A stretch of DNA of 64,000 bases from Vicinamibacteria bacterium (GTDB lineage: Bacteria; Acidobacteriota; Vicinamibacteria; Marinacidobacterales; Marinacidobacteraceae), in the NCBI GenBank assembly GCA_963668695.2, contig CAXXLQ010000004.1, positions 576,001 to 640,000 on the forward strand. Reading direction: 5' to 3'. The translations under genes were made by a program, and so were the position numbers. Numbering within the stretch: position 1 is the first letter of the stretch; every line of letters begins with the position of its first letter. Below are positions 3,735 to 40,398 of the stretch, in pieces. A model generated the notes under the pieces. The model searched no databases. It was not told the DNA's origin and saw only the letters and a list, made by a program, of their open reading frames with translations.

Positions 3735-3988
3735 CAGCCTGTGATGAAACCCACGCGGCCCAGTTCTCCCGGTGGGGGCTCGAGCGGCGATGCATCCCGC
3801 CTGAACCGCCCCCCCACCGGGAGAACTGGCGCTTTGCGGCGCTCTGCGTTGCGTTTCGGTCGAAATACACCCGGGCCAGTTCTCCCGGTGGGGGCTCCTC
3901 CCTCACGCGCCTTGTCAGCCGGGCGCCTCGCCCCCACCGGGAGAACTGGCCAACCTCTCGGCGCTCACCCGGGTTCCACCACCGGCTG
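3735..3988 (+). mobile_element. MITE family 1, copy B (four 18-mers)
   Basis: Same TIRs and internal CGTTGCGTTTCGGTCGAAATACAC core; flanks TCAA/TTAA. Confidence 0.9.
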
Positions 3989-4056
3989 TTAAGCCGGAGA
4001 AGTGTTGACACCCGCCCGGCATCGGCGCCGGGCTCGCGAAGGGGGCCGCTCCGACC

Positions 4057-9982: not shown

Positions 9983-10233
9983 CAGCCGGTGCTGAAACCC
10001 AGGCGGCCCAGTTCTCCCGGTGGGGGCTCGAGCGGCGATCCATCCCGGCTGAACCACTCCGCTTCGCTCCGTTCTGCGTTGCGTTTCGGTCGAAATACAC
10101 TCGGGCCAGTTCTCCCGGTGGGGGCTCCTTCCTCACGCGCCTTGTCAGCCGGGCCCCCACCGGGAGAACTGGCCCCACCGGGAGAACTGGGCCTCACCGC
10201 TCTCGGCGCTCACCCGGGTTCCACCACAGGCTA
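9983..10233 (+). mobile_element. MITE family 1, copy C
   Basis: TIRs; flanks CTAG/CTAA; removal restores a TAATG stop/start overlap between ATPase and permease. Confidence 0.9.
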
Positions 10234-10236
10234 CTA

Positions 10237-11400
10237 ATGCGAGGCGCCGCCACCGTCTTCCGGAAGGAGCTCGTCGACGGGATCCGCGACCGGCGGGCCT
10301 TCATTGCGGTCCTGGTTTCGATCAGCATCTTCCCGATCATGATGCTGTTGATCGGCCGCTTCGGCGAGGGAATCCGCGACGAGGTGCGGAACATGGAAGT
10401 GCCGGTGGAAGGCCGGGAAAACGCTCCCGCGCTCGTCGAATGGCTCGAACGGCAGCCGGGTCTCGAACTGACCCCGGCCCCCGAGGACCCGGAGTCCGCG
10501 GTGCAGGAACACGAGGTGGATCTGGTGCTTCGGATCCCGGCGGACTACGAGGAGCGGTTCGCAGAGGGACGGCCGGCAGAAGTGGAACTGGTCGCCGACA
10601 GTTCGCGGGCGGCGGCAGGGGCGAAGGCGCGCCGCGTCACGGGGCTGCTCGAGGGTTACGCGAACGAGGTCGCCGCCCTGCGCCTCATCAGCCGGGGGGT
10701 GAGCCCGCTGCTCATCCGCCCGCTTGCCGTCGAGCGCGCGGAGGTCTTCAGTTCCCGGCGGCGGACGGCCTTTTCCACTCTCGGCTTCATCCCGATGTTC
10801 CTCCTGATGAACGCCTTCTTCGGCGGCATGCAGATCGCCTCGGACGCCATTGCCGGCGAACGCGAGCGGGGGTCGATCGAGGCGCTGCTGCTGAACGCGG
10901 TTCCGGGGCGCCTTCTCATTCTCGGGAAGTGGGCGGCGGCGGCGACCTTCGCCGTCTTCCTGACGCTCCTCGGCCTCGGCACCTGCGTGGTGGTGCTGCG
11001 GTTCATGCCGGGCGCGCTGAACATCTCGCCGAGCGCCGGTGACTGGGCGCTCGTGGGGCTTGCCGCCCTCCCGCTTGCGCTCTTCTGCTCGGCGCTGCAG
11101 GTGGTGGTCTCGACCTACGCGAAGTCCTACAAGGAGGCGCAGACCTATTTCGGCTACGTGGCCTTCCTCCCGATGATCCCCTTCTTCGCGGTCACCTTCA
11201 ATTTGGTGGAGCAGGGGACCTGGACGGCCTTCATCCCGATTCTCGGCCAGCATCTGATGATCCTGAACGTGATCGCCGGCGAAACGATCGCGACCTGGGA
11301 ACTGGCGCTGGCCGGATTCATCGCCCTCGCCGCCGCCTGGGCGCTCCTGCGGTTCGCCTCATCCCTCTTCGTCCGCGAGAGCGTCGTCTTCGTCCGCTGA
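10237..11400 (+). CDS. ABC transporter permease (NatB-like)
   Basis: VFRKELVDGIRDRR, AGERERGSIEALL, AKSYKEAQ; multiple TM segments. Confidence 0.9.
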   Translation: MRGAATVFRKELVDGIRDRRAFIAVLVSISIFPIMMLLIGRFGEGIRDEVRNMEVPVEGRENAPALVEWLERQPGLELTPAPEDPESAVQEHEVDLVLRIPADYEERFAEGRPAEVELVADSSRAAAGAKARRVTGLLEGYANEVAALRLISRGVSPLLIRPLAVERAEVFSSRRRTAFSTLGFIPMFLLMNAFFGGMQIASDAIAGERERGSIEALLLNAVPGRLLILGKWAAAATFAVFLTLLGLGTCVVVLRFMPGALNISPSAGDWALVGLAALPLALFCSALQVVVSTYAKSYKEAQTYFGYVAFLPMIPFFAVTFNLVEQGTWTAFIPILGQHLMILNVIAGETIATWELALAGFIALAAAWALLRFASSLFVRESVVFVR

Positions 11401-12041: not shown

Positions 12042-12045
12042 CTAG

Positions 12046-12478
12046 CAACCTGTGGTGGAACCCGGGTGAGCGCCGAGGCTGGCCAGTCTCCCGGTGGGGG
12101 CGAGGCGCCCGGCTGACAAGGCGCGTGAGGGAGGAGCCCCCACCGGGAGAACTGGCCCGGGTGTATTTCGACCGAAACGCAACGCAGAACGGAGCGAAGC
12201 GGAGTGGTCAACAGCCGGTGGTGGAACCCGCGTGAGCGCCGAGGTCAGTGAGGCGCCCGGCTGACAAGGCGCGTGAGGGAGGAATACCTGGTGTATTTCG
12301 ACCGAAACGCAACGATGAGCGGCGCGCAGCGACGCGGTCAGCCGGGATGAATCGCCGGCCGAGCCCCCACCGGGAGAACTGGGCCGCGTGGGTTTCATCA
12401 CCGGCTGTTTGGCCGGGATGGATCGCCGGCCGAGCCCCCACCGGGAGAACTGGGCCGCCTGGGTTTCACCACAGGCTG
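12046..12478 (-). mobile_element. MITE family 1 double nest: outer 12046-12478, inner 12212-12407
   Basis: Two left-hand ends followed by two right-hand ends; outer copy resumes GCCGGGATGGATCG exactly after the inner copy. Confidence 0.85.
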
Positions 12479-12482
12479 CTAA

Positions 12483-34650: not shown

Positions 34651-35370
34651 TCACTGGAGCGTTTCGGACCGCCGGCGCCCGTGTTCTTCGTAGTAGCGAC
34701 CGAACCGGGCCCGCCGCCGCCGGCGCCTGAGATCGTTCCACAGGAGGCCCAGGCGGGACTGTCGCCTCGGAATCAGGCCGTCGCGCCGCAGCAGGACATA
34801 CCCCACGACGAGTCCCCCGAGGTGAGCGATGTGGGAGACCCCATCGGATGTCGCCGAAAGGGAACCCGCCAGCGAAATGAAGCCGAACAGGATCACCATG
34901 TGGCGCGCGCTCATCGGCAGGATTCCGAGCAGATAGACCTGAGCTGACGGGAACAAGAGCCCGAAAGCCAGCAGCACGCCGTACACCGCTCCCGAAGCGC
35001 CGATATGCCGCGCATCGAAGAACGCCGGCAGCGGCAGCAAGGCGAAGAGTCCCGCCCCCACCCCGCAGAGCAGGTAGTAGCGGATGAAGCGGCGCCGGCC
35101 CCAGACCCGTTCGAGCTGCGATCCGAACATGTACAGCATGAACATGTTCATCAGCAGGTGGAACAAACCCCCGTGCAGGAACATGTAGGTGAAGAGACCC
35201 CAGACCTCGAGCGAGAGGACCGCGGGCGGATAGAGGCCGAAAAACCCGGTGACGGCCGGAAACACCAGCTGCACCAGATAGACCCCGCCCGTAATCAGGA
35301 TGAGTTGCTTCACGCCCGGCGGCATGGTTCCGGCCCCGAAGAGGGCGCCGGTTCGGTAGCTGCGGTACAT
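34651..35370 (-). CDS. Rhomboid intramembrane serine protease
   Basis: TYMFLHGG..HLLMNM, GASG, SHIAHLGG. Confidence 0.9.
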   Translation of the reverse strand: MYRSYRTGALFGAGTMPPGVKQLILITGGVYLVQLVFPAVTGFFGLYPPAVLSLEVWGLFTYMFLHGGLFHLLMNMFMLYMFGSQLERVWGRRRFIRYYLLCGVGAGLFALLPLPAFFDARHIGASGAVYGVLLAFGLLFPSAQVYLLGILPMSARHMVILFGFISLAGSLSATSDGVSHIAHLGGLVVGYVLLRRDGLIPRRQSRLGLLWNDLRRRRRRARFGRYYEEHGRRRSETLQ

Positions 35371-35379
35371 GCTGGTCAA

Positions 35380-36158
35380 CAGCCGGTGGTGGAACCCGGG
35401 TGAGCGCCGAGCCCGGTGAGGCCCAGTTCTCCCGGTGGGGCCAGTTCTCCCGGTGGGGGCCCGGCTGACAAGGCGCGTGAGGGAGGAGCCCCCACCGGGA
35501 GAACTGGCCCGAGTGTATTTCGACCGAAACGCAACGATGAGCGGCGCAAAGCGGAGTGGTGAACAGCCGGTGGTGGAAGCCGCGTGAGCGCCGAGCCCGG
35601 TGAGGCCCAGTTCTCCCGGTGGGGCCAGTCCTCCCGGTGGGGCCAGTTCTCCCGGTGGGGGCCCGGTTGACAAGGCGCGTGAGGGAGGAGCCCCCACCGG
35701 GAGAACTGGCCCGAGTGTATTCCGACCGAAACGCAACGATGAGCGGCGCGCAGCGACGCGGTGAACAGCCGGTGGTGGAACCCACGTGAGCGCCGAGCCC
35801 GGTGAGGCCCAGTTCTCCCGGTGGGGCCAGTTCTCCCGGTGGGGGCCCGGCTGACAAGGCGCGCGAGGGAGGAGTCCCCACCGGGAGAACTGGCCCTGGT
35901 GTATTTCGACCGAAACGCAACGATGAGCGGCGCGAAGCGACGCGATTCAGCCGGGATGGATCGCTGGCCGAGCCCCCACCGGGAGAACTGGGCCGCGTGG
36001 GTTTCACTACCGGTTGTTTGGCCGGGATGGATCGCCGGCCGAGCCCCCACCGGGAGAACTGGGCCGCGTGGGCTCCGCCACCGGCTGTCTGGCCGGGATG
36101 GATCGCCGGGCGAGCCCCCACCGGGAGAACTGGGCCGCATGGTTTTCACCACCGGCTG
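35380..36158 (-). mobile_element. MITE family 1 triple nest: 35380-36158 > 35564-36087 > 35766-36016
   Basis: Three left-hand ends then three right-hand ends, each host resuming at the same internal site. Confidence 0.85.
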
Positions 36159-39008
36159 TTAAGAAGCGCGCCGGGCCGCCGGCGCCGGCTCCAGAATCTC
36201 ACGCAGATAGCGCCCGGTCCAGGATTCGGTGTTCCGGGCCACCGCCTCCGGGGTCCCACAGACGACGACCTCGCCGCCGCGACCCCCGCCGTCGGGGCCG
36301 AGATCCACCAGGTAGTCGGCGGTCTTGATCACGTCCAGGTTGTGTTCGATCACTACCACCGTGTTCCCGGCGTCCACCAGACGGTCCAGGACCCGGAGCA
36401 GACGGGCGATGTCGTCGAAATGGAGCCCGGTGGTGGGCTCGTCGAGGATGTAGAGGGTGTCGCCGGTGGACCGCTTCGCAAGTTCGCGAGAGAGCTTGAC
36501 CCGCTGCGCCTCCCCTCCCGAAAGGGTCGGGGACGGTTGTCCCAGCCGGATGTAGCCGAGTCCCACATCCTGGAGCGTCTCGAGAATGTGCAGGATGCCG
36601 GGCTGGGACCGGAACACGGTGATGGCTTCGCTCACCGTGAGGTCGAGCACATCGGCGATGGACCGGCCCTGGTATCGAACCGTGAGCGTCTGGTCGTTGA
36701 AACGCCGTCCGCCGCACACCTGGCAGGACACGAAGACATCGGCCAGGAAGTGCATCTCCACCCGGATCATCCCGTCTCCGTGGCAGTGCTCGCAACGCCC
36801 GCCGGGCACGTTGAAGGAGAAGCGCCCCGGGCGATACCCCTGGGCGCGTGCCGCCGGCAGAGCGGCGAAGAGCAAGCGGATGCCGTCGAAAACCTTCGTG
36901 TAGGTGGCCGGGTTGGAACGCGGGGTGCGGCCGATGGGAGACTGGTCAATGTCCACCACCCTTCCGACGCGTTCCATCCCCTCGATGCGGGAGTGCGGAC
37001 CCACCGGACGCTCCGAGCGGTGGAGCGCGCGGGCGAGCGCCCGGTAGAGAACCTCGTACACGAGGGTGCTCTTGCCGGCGCCGGAGACTCCGGTCACGCA
37101 GGTGAAGGCTCCGAGCGGAATCCGGACATCCACTTCCTTCAGGTTGTTCGCGCGAGCCCCGACGATCCGGACGGAATGCGGTGCGGAGCGCCGGCGGGGC
37201 GGGACGGGGATCTCGAGATCTCCGCGGAGATAGCGTCCGGTGAGAGATTTCGGATCGTTCCGGATCTGCTCCGGAGACCCCTCGGCCACCACTTCCCCGC
37301 CGTAAACCCCAGCCCCCGGGCCGAAGTCCAGCACGTGGTCCGCGGACTCGATGGTCTCCCGGTCGTGCTCCACGACCACCACGGTGTTCCCGATGTCCCG
37401 CAGCCGATGCAGCGCTTCCAGGAGCTTCCCGTTGTCGCGTGGGTGCAGGCCGATGGACGGCTCGTCGAGGATGTAGATGACCCCCGTGAGCTCCGAGCCG
37501 ATCTGGCTGGCCAGCCGGATGCGCTGGGACTCGCCGCCCGAGAGGCTGGGCGCCAGGCGATCGAGCGAGAGGTAGCAGAGCCCCACGTCGGCGAGAAAAC
37601 GGAGCCGATTCCGGATTTCCTTGAGGAGTTCGGCGCCGATGACCAGCGCCGTGCCCTCGAGTTCGAGACTCCCCGCGAGTTCGAGAGCATCCTCGATGGC
37701 CATCGAGGAGATATCCGCGATGGTCCGGCCGCCCACCGTGACGGCGAGCGCCTCGGGACGCAAACGCGTGCCGTCACAGGCGCGGCAGGCGCGGCTCGAG
37801 AAGAAGCGCGCGTAATAGCGCCGCGCCCGGTCGGAGGAGGTTTCCCGCATCCGGCGGGTGAGCACGTTGAGCACTCCCTCCCATTGCACCGGTCGGGAAC
37901 TCTTTTGGTAATTGACGGGAATCCGCTCGCGGCCGGCGCCGGACAGCAGGATCTTCCGCTTGGCGGCGGCGAGACGCTCCCACGGGCGGTCGAGATCCAC
38001 CTCGAACCGCTTCGCCACCCCCCGAATCACCGTCGCCTCCCAGCCGTCCTTCTCGGCGAACCGGCCCCAAAACGCCACCGCGCCCTCGTTGATGCTCAGG
38101 CGCGGATCGGGGACCACGAGGTCCTCGTCCACCTCGCCGCGGGCGCCGAGGCCGTTGCACTCCTTGCACATGCCCTGGGGGCTGTTGAAGGAGAAGAGCT
38201 GCGGAGAAAGCTCGGGGAATCCGATGCCGCAGCTCGGGCAGCCGTTCTTTTCGGAGAAGACCCGGTCCCGGGACTCCCCTTCGACCGCCGCGATCACGAT
38301 GCCGTCCCCCTCGCGAAGCGCGGTCTCGACCGAATCGGTGACCCGCCCCCGCCATTCCTCGCTGACCGGCTCCTTTCGGGCCAGCCGGTCCACCACGATC
38401 TCGACGTTGTGCTTCTTTCGCTTCTCGAGGGCCTCGACTTCCTCGATGAGCTGGACCTCCCCGTCAATCCGCGCCCGGGAGAAGCCGCGGCGCAGGATGG
38501 TCTCCAGGGTGGAGCGGAACTCGCCCCGGCGGTTTTCGAGCACCGGCGCGAGGAGCAGAAACCGCGAGCCGGCCGGGAGATTCGCGAGTTCCTCGACGAT
38601 CTCCTGGGCGGTCTGCGGGCTTACCGCCCGGCCGCAGCGAGGACAGTGGGCGACCCCGACCCGGGCGAAGAGCACCCGCAGGTAGTCGGAAATCTCCGTG
38701 ATGGTCCCGACCGTGGAGCGGGGATTGTGGCTGGCCGACTTCTGATCGACCGAGATTGTCGGAGAGAGCCCCTGGATCGTGTCGTAGAGGGGCTTGTCCA
38801 TCTGCCCGAGGAACTGGCGGGCGTAGCTGGACAGCGATTCGACGTAGCGACGCTGACCTTCGGCGTAGAGGGTGTCGAGCGCCAGGGACGACTTTCCCGA
38901 CCCCGAGACCCCGCTCAGAACGACGAGGCGCTTCTTCGGAATACGAACGGTAATGTTCTTGAGATTGTGCTGCCTGGCGCCCCGCACCACGATGCGATCG
39001 GGCTCCAT
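36159..39008 (-). CDS. uvrA: Excinuclease ABC subunit A
   Basis: GARQHNLK, GVSGSGKSS, two ABC domains, zinc fingers. Confidence 0.97.
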   Translation of the reverse strand: MEPDRIVVRGARQHNLKNITVRIPKKRLVVLSGVSGSGKSSLALDTLYAEGQRRYVESLSSYARQFLGQMDKPLYDTIQGLSPTISVDQKSASHNPRSTVGTITEISDYLRVLFARVGVAHCPRCGRAVSPQTAQEIVEELANLPAGSRFLLLAPVLENRRGEFRSTLETILRRGFSRARIDGEVQLIEEVEALEKRKKHNVEIVVDRLARKEPVSEEWRGRVTDSVETALREGDGIVIAAVEGESRDRVFSEKNGCPSCGIGFPELSPQLFSFNSPQGMCKECNGLGARGEVDEDLVVPDPRLSINEGAVAFWGRFAEKDGWEATVIRGVAKRFEVDLDRPWERLAAAKRKILLSGAGRERIPVNYQKSSRPVQWEGVLNVLTRRMRETSSDRARRYYARFFSSRACRACDGTRLRPEALAVTVGGRTIADISSMAIEDALELAGSLELEGTALVIGAELLKEIRNRLRFLADVGLCYLSLDRLAPSLSGGESQRIRLASQIGSELTGVIYILDEPSIGLHPRDNGKLLEALHRLRDIGNTVVVVEHDRETIESADHVLDFGPGAGVYGGEVVAEGSPEQIRNDPKSLTGRYLRGDLEIPVPPRRRSAPHSVRIVGARANNLKEVDVRIPLGAFTCVTGVSGAGKSTLVYEVLYRALARALHRSERPVGPHSRIEGMERVGRVVDIDQSPIGRTPRSNPATYTKVFDGIRLLFAALPAARAQGYRPGRFSFNVPGGRCEHCHGDGMIRVEMHFLADVFVSCQVCGGRRFNDQTLTVRYQGRSIADVLDLTVSEAITVFRSQPGILHILETLQDVGLGYIRLGQPSPTLSGGEAQRVKLSRELAKRSTGDTLYILDEPTTGLHFDDIARLLRVLDRLVDAGNTVVVIEHNLDVIKTADYLVDLGPDGGGRGGEVVVCGTPEAVARNTESWTGRYLREILEPAPAARRAS

Positions 39009-39465
39009 GGACTGTTCCGGGAGTCTAAAGGTTGGGGGCGGCCAGTCCCCCCGGTGGGGGCCTAGCAGCGCTGGGCAGTTCTCCCGGTGGGGCCCTTCAG
39101 ACCGGCATCGCTCCCGGCAGGGGAGCGAAACTCCCAGCGCCAGTCCCCGCATGGCGCAGCCGGCAACGAGGATGGCGCAACGCAATCCCGCCCAGGAACG
39201 CCGGTCTTCAGGCCCCCACCGGGAGAACTGGCCAGCATCGCGGCCGCAGGCCGCGAAACTCCCGTCGCCAGTCCCCGCATGGACCAGCAAAAACCCCAGG
39301 AACGCTGGCCCGTTCTTCCGGTGGAGGTCGGCACCGCGGCCCGACAGGGCCGCGAAACCGCGTGCCGCCCCGCGCCTGCGTGGCGGCCCTCTGAATGACG
39401 TGGGCGACACCGAAGCCCAATACACTCTTCGCTTCGTCCAACTCCGAAAGGCCCTCCCCGCACCC

Positions 39466-40398
39466 ATGCACAACTCCGCCGCCATCGGTTACGACCAGCC
39501 GCTGTTCATCCAGCCCTTCGACCACCGGGGCAGCTTCACGAAGTCCTTCTTCGGCTTCCGCGGCGCCCCGGAAATCTCTCCCGGCAGCGACCGATTCGCG
39601 CCGGTGGCGGCGGCGAAAAGCCTGATCTATCGCGGCCTCCTCCAGGCGATCGAGGGCGGCGTTCCGAAGGAGCAGGTGGGGATCCTGGTGGACGCCCAGT
39701 TCGGCAGCCAGATCCTGGCCGACGCCGACGCCCGGGGGATCCCGCGGGCGGTCTGTATCGAAAAGAGCGGCCAGCCAGTATTCGACTTCGAGTACGGCGC
39801 GGGGTGGGTGAACCACATCCGCTTTCACCGGCCGGACATCGTGAAGGTGCTGGTCCGCCTCCACCCCGACGACCCCGCGGCCGATACCGCGCAGCAACTC
39901 ACCCGGCTCAAGCTCGCGTCGGACTACCTGCACGGCCCGGAACGGCGCCTGTTCATGTTCGAGCTGCTGGTGCCGGCCACCACCGACGAGGACAAGGAAG
40001 CGGGCGCGACCTACGACCGTGACCTCCGCCCCGGCCACATGGTGCGAGCGATCCACCTGATCCAGGACTTCGGCATCGAGCCGGACATCTGGAAGATCGA
40101 GGGAGTGGACCGCGGAGAAGACGCGGAACGAGTCGCGGCGGCGGCTCGCAGCGGACCCGGCCGGGAGCGGGTCGGCTCCATCGTCCTGGGGCGCGGCTCC
40201 GATGCTGCACAGGTCCACGAGTGGCTGCGGGTAGCGGCCCCGGTGGACGGCTTCATCGGCTTCGCCGTCGGCCGCACCAACTTCCGCGAACCGCTGGGTT
40301 CGCACCTCGCCGGCCAGCTCGACGAGGCGGACGCCATCGCGCAAATCGCCGCCAACTACCGGTCCTGCGTGGACACCTGGCGCGCCGCCCGGGATTGA
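39466..40398 (+). CDS. DUF2090/IolC-associated aldolase-domain protein
   Basis: PFDHRGS, EKSG, FELLVP, PDIWKIEG, VLGRG, GFAVGRT. Confidence 0.8.
   Translation: MHNSAAIGYDQPLFIQPFDHRGSFTKSFFGFRGAPEISPGSDRFAPVAAAKSLIYRGLLQAIEGGVPKEQVGILVDAQFGSQILADADARGIPRAVCIEKSGQPVFDFEYGAGWVNHIRFHRPDIVKVLVRLHPDDPAADTAQQLTRLKLASDYLHGPERRLFMFELLVPATTDEDKEAGATYDRDLRPGHMVRAIHLIQDFGIEPDIWKIEGVDRGEDAERVAAAARSGPGRERVGSIVLGRGSDAAQVHEWLRVAAPVDGFIGFAVGRTNFREPLGSHLAGQLDEADAIAQIAANYRSCVDTWRAARD

Follow-up and report, generated by a model that had tools for sequence, protein, structure and literature searches.

Bacterial MITEs such as RUP, which is linked to IS630-Spn1, and Correia/NEMIS duplicate TA at insertion, and to our knowledge multi-layer, site-specific nesting is absent from the descriptions of these families. 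How many internal modules a BOX element (boxA-boxB(n)-boxC) or a BIME contains differs from locus to locus and strain to strain, and ERIC/IRU, which are hairpin-forming intergenic repeats, carry extra unrelated short segments at fixed internal positions by a mechanism that is not known. Homing introns and inteins, as well as gap repair after P-element excision, leave exact inherited junctions, no target duplication and possibly co-converted flanks. Nests of MITEs have been described from plants, where the normal target of the element is used and normal duplications are made. According to PMC5172404, which summarises Jiang and Wessler (2001), members of Castaway and Gaijin are nested in their own family, and multi-layer multimers are attributed to several independent insertions.

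The window analysed here, a stretch of 64,000 nucleotides from a Vicinamibacteria bacterium (genome G000), harbors a three-layer block of a MITE between a rhomboid-family protease gene and uvrA. The block (35379-36159) reads L-L-L-R-R-R, that is, three left arms followed by three 71-nt right arms, as the initial annotation had it with coordinates good to 1-2 bases. The left arms start with ACAGCC at 35379, 35563 and 35765, measure 182, 200 and 182 nt up to ...GGT and share 95% identity over their first 86 nt according to the repeat finder, while the right arms start with GCCGGG at 35950, 36021 and 36092, are 71 nt apiece, share 89-90% identity and end in GGTTGT (36017), GGCTGT (36088) and GGCTGT (36159). 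The left arm of the outermost element (35379..35560, + strand) opens with the left terminal repeat ACAGCCGGTGGTGG, carries two forward 18-mers and one reverse, and has the tail ...GAGTGGT. It is followed by the junction letters GA (35561..35562), lying between the ...GGT of the host and the next ACAGCC, by the left arm of the middle element (35563..35762, +) with three forward 18-mers, and by a second GA (35763..35764). The innermost element (35765..36017, +) is complete, with its site unbroken as ...GAT-TCA-GCCGGGATGG at 35944-35959 (TCA at 35947-35949). Both outer hosts break off at ...GGT (35560, 35762) and are picked up again at GCCGGGATGG (36021, 36092): the right junction letters TTG (36018..36020) precede the right arm of the middle element (36021..36088, +), and the minority variant CTG (36089..36091) precedes that of the outermost element (36092..36159, +), which ends in ...CACCGGCTGT and takes part in inverted repeat I19 (35371-35397 pairing with 36141-36167; 27 nt, 81%). 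The letters GA at both left junctions and TTG and CTG at the right ones bear out the earlier statement that the junctions are not clean duplications. The copies also differ in sequence and 18-mer load, as had been claimed: the right arms, each unique in the genome, mismatch pairwise at 7, 9 and 8 of 71 positions, the outermost and innermost left arms differ at 13 of 184 positions, and the middle left arm has one 18-mer more than the others. Folded as RNA, the 0.78-kb block is predicted to form a hairpin of extreme stability (-495 kcal/mol). In the window 46 copies of the element's 17-mer core were counted, where chance predicts 0.01, and a second nest of the same family, with two layers and the same break site, is located at 12045..12480 (+; C4:588046), with GGT-CA-ACAGCC and GGCTGT-TTG-GCCGGG as its junctions.

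The rhomboid gene (34654..35370, - strand; Pfam Rhomboid PF01694, E 6.7e-30), whose orthologues adjoin uvrA in relatives, starts at an ATG (35368-35370, reverse-complemented) separated from the array by 8 nt, and uvrA (36162..39020, -) was recognised by Pfam UvrA_inter (E 1.6e-31), UvrA_DNA-bind (E 5.4e-27) and ABC_tran. The left flank GCTGGTCA (35371..35378) is the counterpart of the spacer and the uvrA stop codon (TCA or CTA) in the empty sites of relatives, which read CATGCTCGTCAGGAAGCGC in G004 and CACGCTCGCTAGGAAGCGC in G001. The present uvrA stop codon TAA (36159..36161, -), taken in by the ORF 36159..39485 (-), consists of the final T of the element and the flanking TA. Comparison with the sister-species locus, suggested as a check by the initial annotation, found the site empty in both G001 and G004, the two closest species, in which the uvrA stop, a few bases and the rhomboid start follow one another; the uvrA site is without the element in 11 of 14 relatives. 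G001 is the nearest species, with 96-97% identity in the flanks. Self-targeting might offer a safe landing site, as the initial annotation proposed; it was the outer element, seated on the stop codon of uvrA, that determined the spot between the two genes, and 0.78 kb of stable hairpin now parts uvrA from a rhomboid gene that stands directly after it in the sister species.

It is scarcely credible that a single copy was inflated here by mis-assembly of a high-copy repeat. The assembly does contain redundant near-identical segments, with a contamination estimate of 9.34%, and no read or contig crosses the whole block; yet the layers differ in sequence down to right arms found once each, dozens of loci show this architecture, as do the assemblies of three other species, and the 3.9-Mb contig implies reads probably far longer than 0.8 kb. 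When four public runs (Logan k-mer contigs) were compared with the block, the contigs broke inside the repeat and none spanned three layers. Most contig joints within the block have sides of ~20 nt and probably stem from other copies, and only the X5 contig joining 35370 to 36155 was used.

The family is a genus-specific, non-coding, TA-targeting MITE, present in 12/12 genomes of the same genus and in 0/8 genomes from other genera. BLAST-based genome-wide scans of G000 gave 186 clean solos and 86 arrays, counts which take in some redundant assembly copies, and the shape of the table is unaltered by de-duplication (258 arrays). Solo copies range from 146 to 290 nt (median 218), carry the terminal inverted repeats RCAGCCKGTGG.../...CCACMGGCTGY, and are flanked by TA on both sides in 114/186 cases, the remaining 72 no longer being TA/TA; a few are flanked by TCA...TCA or TGA...TGA. 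Adjacent copies are separated by a 2-nt spacer in 20/31 pairs, the spacer being TA in 18, and 30 solos of G004 stand opposite an empty site in G000. The family thus shows several features expected of a bacterial MITE, being short and non-coding with TIRs, dispersed in many presence/absence copies, and marked by a target-site duplication. An Rfam search over 35000-36600 at permissive thresholds returned sub-threshold microRNA-hairpin noise and no family above threshold, and PLSDB plasmids gave no match to the element. The 211 single matches to marker c alone were disregarded as chance matches in GC-rich DNA.

The initial annotation had placed the breaks at one and the same site, and the genome-wide tally of nests and break positions that it suggested agrees with this: left-left spacing is constant in 119/130 junctions and right-right spacing in 220/236, and the same junctions and break position recur in three other species (G001, G004 and G008). 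Arrays reach four layers, and nesting has one orientation only, with an opposite-strand marker at an internal junction in 1 of the 181 arrays having at least five markers. The uninterrupted host site GGT-TCA-GCCGGG becomes GGT-GA-guest-TTG-GCCGGG in the nests, and the terminus mimic CAGCCGG that had been noticed in the site exactly matches the left end of the inner subfamily described below. Among the left-left junctions listed, TGAAC is found in 99/130, accompanied by CCGG 92 times and by CCTG seven times, while GTAAC is accompanied by CCGG five times and by CCTG three times. Of the 220 constant-spacing right-right junctions, 151 read GYTGTTTGGCCGGGATG and 14 the GCTGTCTGGCC variant with CTG letters. 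The internal site holds no TA, the only TAs of the inner copy being at positions 137 and 243 of 253. The left variants GGTGAA, GGTCAA, GGGTAA and GGTTAA are all one change from GGT-TA-A and one right junction is GT-TA-GGCC, as would be expected if the junctions had been copied ever since from one ancient insertion at TA. Two other models were rejected: a 3-bp TCA duplication fits only a minority of the junctions (GGTCAA in 9/130, GTTCAGCC in ~20/236), and a circular copy integrating via exchange at CAGCCGG predicts GGTTCAGCCGGTGG, which was found in just 3/130.

The block is a true nest and not two unrelated tandem arrays. In the left-by-right table two left arms go with two right arms in 25/40 arrays and three with three in 8/15, and in two-layer nests the pairing of outer arm with outer arm beats the crossed pairing in 20/25, with three ties and two worse. 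Separate expansion of left and right arms by slippage or unequal crossing-over, with no insertion and with three plus three as a coincidence, has a very low probability against this diagonal and this matching of outer arms. Unit numbers do shift in that manner between near-identical alleles, the ~20 GTTCAGCC right-right junctions are as slippage on GCGGTT/GCTGTT predicts, and the three GGTTCAGCCGGTGG left-left junctions are as exchange at CAGCCGG predicts. The left-left junctions, however, keep the complete left terminus with AA, the inner arms are of another subfamily than the outer ones, the three right arms at uvrA, differing at 7-9 of 71 positions, are not mutual nearest kin, and a first duplicate cannot arise from one copy by a single crossover. 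Arm expansion is refuted as the sole process and stands as a secondary process.

Many arrays are unbalanced in the number of left versus right arms, and between near-identical redundant segments of the assembly, units consisting of a left arm or a right arm alone have been lost or gained, which makes recombination the second major process. A 2L2R allele and a near-identical 1L2R allele are set apart by a 167-bp deletion whose endpoints lie at homologous positions in two left arms, and another near-identical pair differs by three right arms. Single left arms accompanied by at least two right arms have an inner-type tail in 27/30 cases, and inner right-arm pairs are identical in 26% of comparisons within an array versus 5.6% between arrays. 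These alignments point to unequal recombination as the process that probably reshapes the arrays. A comparison of 35 arrays across redundant assembly copies turned up no difference of a whole cassette, so that ongoing layer addition was not caught.

The inner layers form a separate and homogeneous subfamily, almost never met with as free copies. Inner left arms are ACAGCCGGTGGTGGAACCC(A/G) in 53/73 cases, the ...CCCG form being found in 5/186 solos and the ...CCCA form lying outside the 14 commonest solo forms listed, right ends with TTTCATCAC predominate in the 127 inner right arms versus 3/186 solos, and in G004 the inner type accounts for 3/75 solos. Inner right arms differ from each other across arrays at a mean of 3.47/67 positions, against 7.09 between solos and 5.91/67 between inner and outer right arms within one array. 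The G-type (TAGCAGCC), which makes up about half of the solos, was never found among the inner layers. In diversity the outer elements of arrays equal the solos, and the cassette has therefore got into many different hosts. This inner cassette, ACAGCCGG...CCGGYTGT, lives in G000 almost only within other copies, always between ...GGT and GCCGGG..., in one orientation and beside the CAGCCGG look-alike of the left terminus. Inner-type tails were carried by 26/56 host left arms versus 22/186 solos, and inner-type heads by at least 24/77 host right arms versus 21/186 solos; this hints at co-conversion, and later recombination (left by left for the tails) could give the same.

The statement that the element inserts into itself thus stands as regards a real nest at a fixed site, but the guests are not random members of the family, the TA-duplicating route is not the one taken, and recombination also acts. 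Ordinary repeated self-insertion, in which any active member would duplicate TA at a preferred internal site and the junction letters would be later mutations in each nest, agrees with the real nested order of the arms, with left junction variants one change from GGT-TA-A and with the decay of TA flanks at solos (72/186 not TA/TA). It is nevertheless very improbable. The nests have no flanking target duplication and their guests are not drawn from the family at large, the uninterrupted site is without TA, the same two mutations would be needed independently in ~100 nests and in four species, and the G-type, despite its share of the solos, has not entered the inner layers.

Orthologous loci speak against it as well, as their pre-insertion sites show TCA replaced and not duplicated. 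Six solo-versus-array pairs between G004 and G000 were listed, and two were dropped, leaving three clear pairs and one reverse case: at G004:1479870 the orientation is opposite and the insertion a different one, and at G004:108442 the immediate flanks differ, so that the insertions may be independent. At the three orthologous loci the same host copy is single in G004 and a multi-layer array in G000. An orthologous host reads GGGGCGGT-TCA-GCCGGG in G004 and GGGGCGGT-GA-inner-TTG-GACGGG in G000, with host-specific markers kept on both sides, and C4:299825 shows the same replacement of TCA. Since the pre-insertion TCA is known from the G004 orthologues and the nests show GA and TTG, the junction letters came along with the insert. 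One locus is stepwise, with 1L1R in G004, 2L3R in G000 and 3L3R in G001, a solo in G008, and nothing in G023, G010 and G009. The direction of change at the G004/G000 pairs was assigned by parsimony, with outgroups empty or deleted at one locus.

The reading that we tentatively prefer, at somewhat less than even probability, is that an ordinary member landed on the uvrA stop, that the inner cassette was copied together with its junctions into the fixed pseudo-terminus site, and that recombination then reshaped the array. An ordinary family member would have inserted on the uvrA stop codon while uvrA and the rhomboid gene were still few bases apart. Each added layer would swap the TCA of the host for the cassette plus the junction letters that belong to it, GA to its left and TTG to its right, the landing 12-mer within host copies being GGTTCAGCCGGG. 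The likeliest route would be templated copying, with a break at the pseudo-terminus repaired from a nested copy elsewhere, as in homing-like gene conversion; left-arm and right-arm blocks would afterwards gain or lose units by unequal homologous recombination, and 18-mers would come and go. Templated copying would account for the missing target duplication and the inherited junction letters, and the exact inherited junctions without target duplication are those of homing-like copying. Against it, host markers survive to within 3 nt of the left junction, which a cut with strand-annealing repair permits and plain gene conversion rarely would. The templated-repair step itself is purely a matter of inference. 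The three layers at uvrA may have been added on the spot or may have arrived as a ready-made nest.

A bolder form of the templated-copy reading is possible, though we lean against it: the inner cassette would be a non-coding hyperparasite of the MITE, having lost transposition to TA and spreading solely into other copies of the host family by breakage at the pseudo-terminus and repair from nested copies. If so, it would be a homing system without a gene of its own, and Russian-doll arrays of up to four layers would turn into fast-changing minisatellites beside genes.

Alternatively, a putative transposase of the family may take the internal CAGCCGG for a left end and set the incoming copy beside it in fixed orientation, in the manner of IS30 or IS911, the junction letters coming from donor flanks via a circle or a branched intermediate with sequence conversion. 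We consider such end-targeted transposition rather unlikely, though several results suit it: the site resembles a terminus and the inner right end always adjoins the pseudo-left end, the orientation is strict (one exception in 181 arrays), and host markers are retained up to the junction. According to PMC9333248, IS30 integrates beside its own IR, exclusively as IRL-IRR, and a branched molecule and gap repair lead to 'sequence conversion products'. Were the cassette moved by such an enzyme, however, free inner-type copies should abound at TA sites, and they amount to ~3% of solos; the inner right end lies 3 nt from the pseudo-end, versus 5 nt to GCCGG in true tandem pairs; and G000 gave 0 matches to the IS30-family transposase model NF033563. 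No autonomous insertion sequence sharing the MITE ends was found in G000, the one of 16 genus genomes covered by this search, where TIR pairs 600-4000 bp apart enclose ordinary genes or other repeat copies, and MITE-type ends are lacking around four DDE_3 places and seven DDE_Tnp_1 places. An enzyme that would cut the pseudo-terminus is accordingly missing from G000 or has gone unrecognised there. TA flanks agree with an IS630/Tc1-mariner origin, and the sole complete IS630-like copy in G000 (C4:667052-668192) has ends, GTGTGGTGTCC, unlike those of the MITE. The occasional 3-nt TNA repeats at solos presumably fit IS5-type groups better.

Should the templated-copy reading hold, non-coding DNA could multiply within a family of repeats with no need for transposition, and very fast changes in length beside genes would have a simple origin. 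With many natural before/after pairs between species of one genus, the mechanism is testable by comparison alone.

Among the known systems, homing and P-element gap repair offer a proposed analogy, with the difference that the sites here are hundreds of dispersed repeats and not alleles of one gene, and that no endonuclease is known. RUP and Correia/NEMIS resemble the present family in size, TIRs, TA flanks, long hairpin fold and preference for gene ends, although G000 yielded no matching IS630. Like the modules of BOX and BIMEs, left arms, right arms and 18-mers differ in number from one near-identical allele to another; the modules are here the two halves of a complete element (LLLRRR), and not one module repeated head to tail. 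Unlike the extra segments of ERIC/IRU, the insert here is a complete member of the family to which its host belongs, in up to four layers.

IS30 IR-targeting and IS911 targeted transposition, as treated in PMC9333248, are alike in that the target is the element's own end or a look-alike, the orientation is strict, the right end comes to lie by a left or left-like end, and the junctions undergo sequence conversion; insertion beside an own-end look-alike in a single orientation is also what was found in these nests. IS30 and IS911 are autonomous copy-out-paste-in elements with a known transposase, whereas the present element is non-coding in a genome (G000) with no IS30-family gene, and the 'end' that is targeted lies inside the element, so that a nest and not a dimer results. 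With the plant MITE multimers it shares a family nested in itself in several layers, but here the site is without the normal target, there is no duplication, the junctions carry inherited letters and the guests all belong to one subfamily. Nesting of MITEs in their own family is usually put down, in plants, to the usual target lying inside the element, and this explanation fails here because the site and the orientation are fixed, the guest is a dedicated subfamily and the junction letters are inherited.

The block between uvrA and the rhomboid gene (35379-36159) is built from arms of one repeat, first three left arms and then three right arms, as the initial annotation had claimed. The left arms each begin with ACAGCCGGTGGTGG, at 35379, 35563 and 35765, and the right arms each begin with GCCGGGATGG, at 35950, 36021 and 36092. 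Both outer copies (hosts) break after ...GGT and continue from GCCGGGATGG, the innermost copy runs uninterrupted through this internal site as GAT-TCA-GCCGGGATGG, and the arms are separated by the letters GA and GA on the left and TTG and CTG on the right. The differences in sequence and 18-mer load first noted among the copies were also recovered: 7-9 of 71 positions vary between any two right arms, each of which is unique in the genome, 13 of 184 positions separate the outermost left arm (L_A) from the innermost (L_C), and the middle one (L_B) has one additional 18-mer. Because the arms have diverged and the 18-mer load of L_B differs, none of the three layers is a newly made copy of another. 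Forward copies of the 18-mer (GGCCAGTTCTCCCGGTGG) lie at 35420-35460, 35604-35662 and 35806-35846, and reverse copies (the complement of GGCCAGTTCTCCCGGTGG) at 35488-35510, 35690-35712, 35874-35896, 35972-35994, 36043-36065 and 36114-36136. The 18-mer number varies inside arms, with 18 or 36 nt separating near-identical alleles, and the load is unequal between orthologous copies of the source assembly (GCA_963668695.2, G000) and the relative G004; the 18-mer may act as a binding site or as a slippage unit. The block is known from the assembly, and no read spans it. The window contains 46 occurrences of the element's 17-nt core, where 0.01 would be expected, and the gene-strand RNA of the block folds as nested hairpins (MFE -495 kcal/mol; z -14.2, 20 shuffles). 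The window also holds a second, two-layer nest of the family with the identical break site (12045-12480) and several solos (one left and one right arm), including those in the regions 3740-3990, with an extra 18-mer within the internal site region, and 9985-10240.

A total of 272 pure-form arrays, each with its left arms preceding its right arms on a single strand, were counted in G000 using four short markers at loose thresholds, complex arrays being excluded; some loci are counted twice in redundant assembly parts, and the 258 arrays left after de-duplication preserve the same distribution. A single left arm is accompanied by one right arm in 186 arrays, two in 20, three in six, four in three, five in one and seven in none. 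Two left arms occur with one right arm in six arrays, two in 25, three in five, four in two, seven in two and five in none, while three left arms occur with one right arm in three, two in one, three in eight, four in three and five or seven in none; the only array with four left arms has four right arms. Equal numbers are thus strongly favoured, and a surplus of right arms is common. Left-left junctions keep a single spacing in 119/130 cases, chiefly GGT-GA-ACAGCCGG, with the variants GGTCAA, GGGTAA and GGTTAA, and right-right junctions in 220/236, mostly as GYTGT-TTG-GCCGGG (151), the variants being CTG (14), TTC (10) and TCA (about 20). Since this spacing is constant genome-wide, the nesting site is fixed, and the tally that the initial annotation had proposed refutes random break positions. 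Orientation is fixed as well, with an opposite-strand marker at an internal junction in only one of 181 larger arrays.

The outer ends of the arrays match solos in variety: they are of A- or G-type, read CAGCCTG or CAGCCGG, and fall into several terminal-repeat subfamilies. The inner left arms are nearly uniform, with ACAGCCGGTGGTGGAACCC(A/G) in 53 of 73 and the G-type in none of the 73, and inner right arms usually end in TTTCATCACCGGYTGT. Such inner-type left and right forms are scarce among solos (5/186 and 3/186, respectively; 3/75 each in G004). Inner right arms of separate arrays differ on average at 3.47 of 67 positions, compared with 7.09 between solos and 5.91 between inner and outer arms of the same array. 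Among 25 two-layer nests, the terminal repeats of the outer left and right arms match each other better than in crossed pairings 20 times (three ties, two worse), and the three-layer nests (n = 8) gave two better, five ties and one worse. Because the guests are uniform, the hosts varied and the outer arms paired, the architecture is a real nest, in which a host element encloses a special cassette.

Orthologous sites differ stepwise between species. G004, compared over 1.6 Mb of about 3.7 Mb with flanks about 93% identical to G000, contains 75 solos and only five multi-arm arrays; 30 of its solos face an empty G000 site, ten sites have a solo in both, one two-left, two-right (2L2R) array lies opposite an empty G000 site, and 80 arrays with at least two markers were unmappable to G000. 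Six pairs set a solo against an array, two of which were dropped on inspection. The solo at G004:94811 corresponds to a 2L2R array at C4:183269 (C4 being the contig of the window), and both share rare host markers (tail GCAGAGCCCCGCGAAGCGGGGCGG, head CGCCCGTCGA, end TTTTGCCACAGGCTGC); G004 reads ...GGGGCGGT-TCA-GCCGGG, and G000 reads ...GGGGCGGT-GA-(inner cassette)-TTG-GACGGG. This site has a deleted remnant in G001 and is empty in G008, G023, G009 and G010. The solo at G004:215617 corresponds to 2L3R at C4:299825 and 3L3R in G001, the site having a solo in G008 and being empty in G023, G010 and G009; the middle right arm in G000 is a chimera of host head and cassette end, which is a mark of unequal exchange. 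The solo at G004:281143 faces 3L1R at C4:364912 (3L4R in a redundant assembly copy), and the reverse, 2L1R in G004 against a solo in G000, occurs once. As the junction letters do not derive from the target TCA in these pairs, they travelled with the insert, which agrees with the earlier view that they are no clean duplications. Identical nest junctions occur in G001, G004 and G008; the six G009 loci returned held no nests, and G023 returned no match.

At the uvrA site, UvrA (36162-39020) and the rhomboid protease (34654-35370) are both on the minus strand, and the uvrA stop TAA, the reverse complement of 36159-36161, consists of the element's last T and the flanking TA. The orthologous locus, whose comparison had been proposed, was found in 15 relatives and read in 14, one being left out at a contig end, and the rhomboid ATG lies within a few bases of uvrA in 11 of the 14. 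The empty site reads CATGCTCGTCAGGAAGCGC in G004 and CACGCTCGCTAGGAAGCGC in G001, and a family-copy end abuts the same stop codon in three of the 14 (G008, G009 and G007), the genes in G008 being 244 bp apart, which corresponds to one copy. In a sponge metagenome run (X5), a 920-nt contig with 15 other differences joins 35370 to 36155 and reads CATGCTGTTAAGAAGCGC; it comes either from a close strain whose TTAA site is empty or from a deletion that joined the GCTG words at 35371-74 and 36155-58, and under either reading the 0.78-kb block was inserted in the G000 lineage. In the sister species (sites L006 and L007) 5-6 nt lie between the uvrA stop and the rhomboid ATG, a spacing that suggests co-transcription of the two genes there; in G000 the 0.78-kb hairpin array separates them, ending 8 nt before the ATG (35368-35378).

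Parts of the assembly are redundant at about 98-99.7% identity: C1 corresponds to C4:304-421 kb, C3 to C4:3505-3538 kb, and the C4 head (first ~148 kb) to its tail (last ~138 kb). They are probably co-assembled strains, with which the contamination estimate of 9.34% is consistent, or an over-run circle; they slightly inflate copy counts and supply natural allele pairs. Of 35 arrays in them, 20 are identical and three unplaced. One pair (2L2R vs 1L2R) differs by one left arm, 167 bp being deleted between homologous points in two left arms, another by three right arms, and two further loci by at least one right arm; differences by multiples of 18 nt also occur, and in no pair does a whole cassette make the difference. 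Single left arms with at least two right arms have a cassette-type tail in 27/30 cases and are therefore collapsed nests. Identical inner right-arm pairs make up 26% within arrays vs 5.6% between arrays. The allele differences and these counts show fast remodelling of nests by later unequal recombination. In the array at C4:196579-197270, near-identical right arms meet in GTTCAGCC-type junctions, such as slippage on GCGGTT/GCTGTT would give, so right arms there seem to have been gained by a second, strictly local process.

The marker scan yielded 186 clean single copies (178 without redundant parts), with the flank consensus YTA|RCAGCC...GGCTGY|TAR. The adjoining bases are T in 157/186 and A in 171/186 at the left end, and T in 181/186 and A in 141/186 at the right end; TA flanks both ends of 114/186, the remainder having apparently decayed TA and a few 3-nt repeats (TCA/TCA or TGA/TGA), and 18 of 31 adjacent pairs abut with one common TA. 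The family is present in 12/12 searched genomes of the genus and was found in 0/8 genomes of other genera of the order, and the runs containing the stretch are mostly sponge metagenomes. No Rfam family, no matching plasmid record and, in G000, no transposase with the family's ends were found. A complete IS630-like element (DDE_3; C4:666796-668374), TA-flanked and with ends GTGTGGTGTCC unlike those of the MITE, occupies precisely the TA that separates two MITE copies. A different short repeat has the initial terminal-repeat bases TARCAGCCCGTGG in common with the MITE and continues as AAGAAGCACCCC (C4:184765, 264478, 1271166-1272396 and ~30 other places); it probably represents a further MITE family that the same enzyme mobilises.

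A normal TA-duplicating insertion for each added layer is contradicted by the pre-insertion sites. Every left junction variant lies a single change away from GGT-TA-A, and GT-TA-GGCC is retained at one right junction, so the first nest probably arose by a single old TA insertion into a variant host, its junctions being inherited ever since; junction classes track the cassette type (TGAAC with CCGG 92, CCTG 7; GTAAC with CCGG 5, CCTG 3). The cassette and its junctions could reach new hosts, with host markers left intact up to the break, by either of two copying routes. The first, which we put forward tentatively at slightly under an even chance, is a break at the pseudo-terminus (the internal CAGCCGG mimic of the left end), at GGT^TCAGCCGG, a position matching real end cleavage, followed by repair synthesis templated by a nested copy elsewhere. 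Its requirement for homology would account for the near-absence of the cassette as a free copy, and it predicts some co-conversion, of which there are hints. The second, end-targeted transposition with conversion, has precedents in IS30 and IS911 (passages in PMC9333248) and seems rather doubtful here. By whichever route layers are added, those at uvrA may have been added in place or have arrived as a ready-made nest, because no intermediate allele is known there.

MITE self-nesting in plants was reportedly described by Jiang and Wessler in 2001. Neither this family nor bacterial site-specific multi-layer nests were found described in the full-text literature outside subscription journals; self-nesting itself is shared with plant MITEs, in which it is known (passages in PMC5172404).
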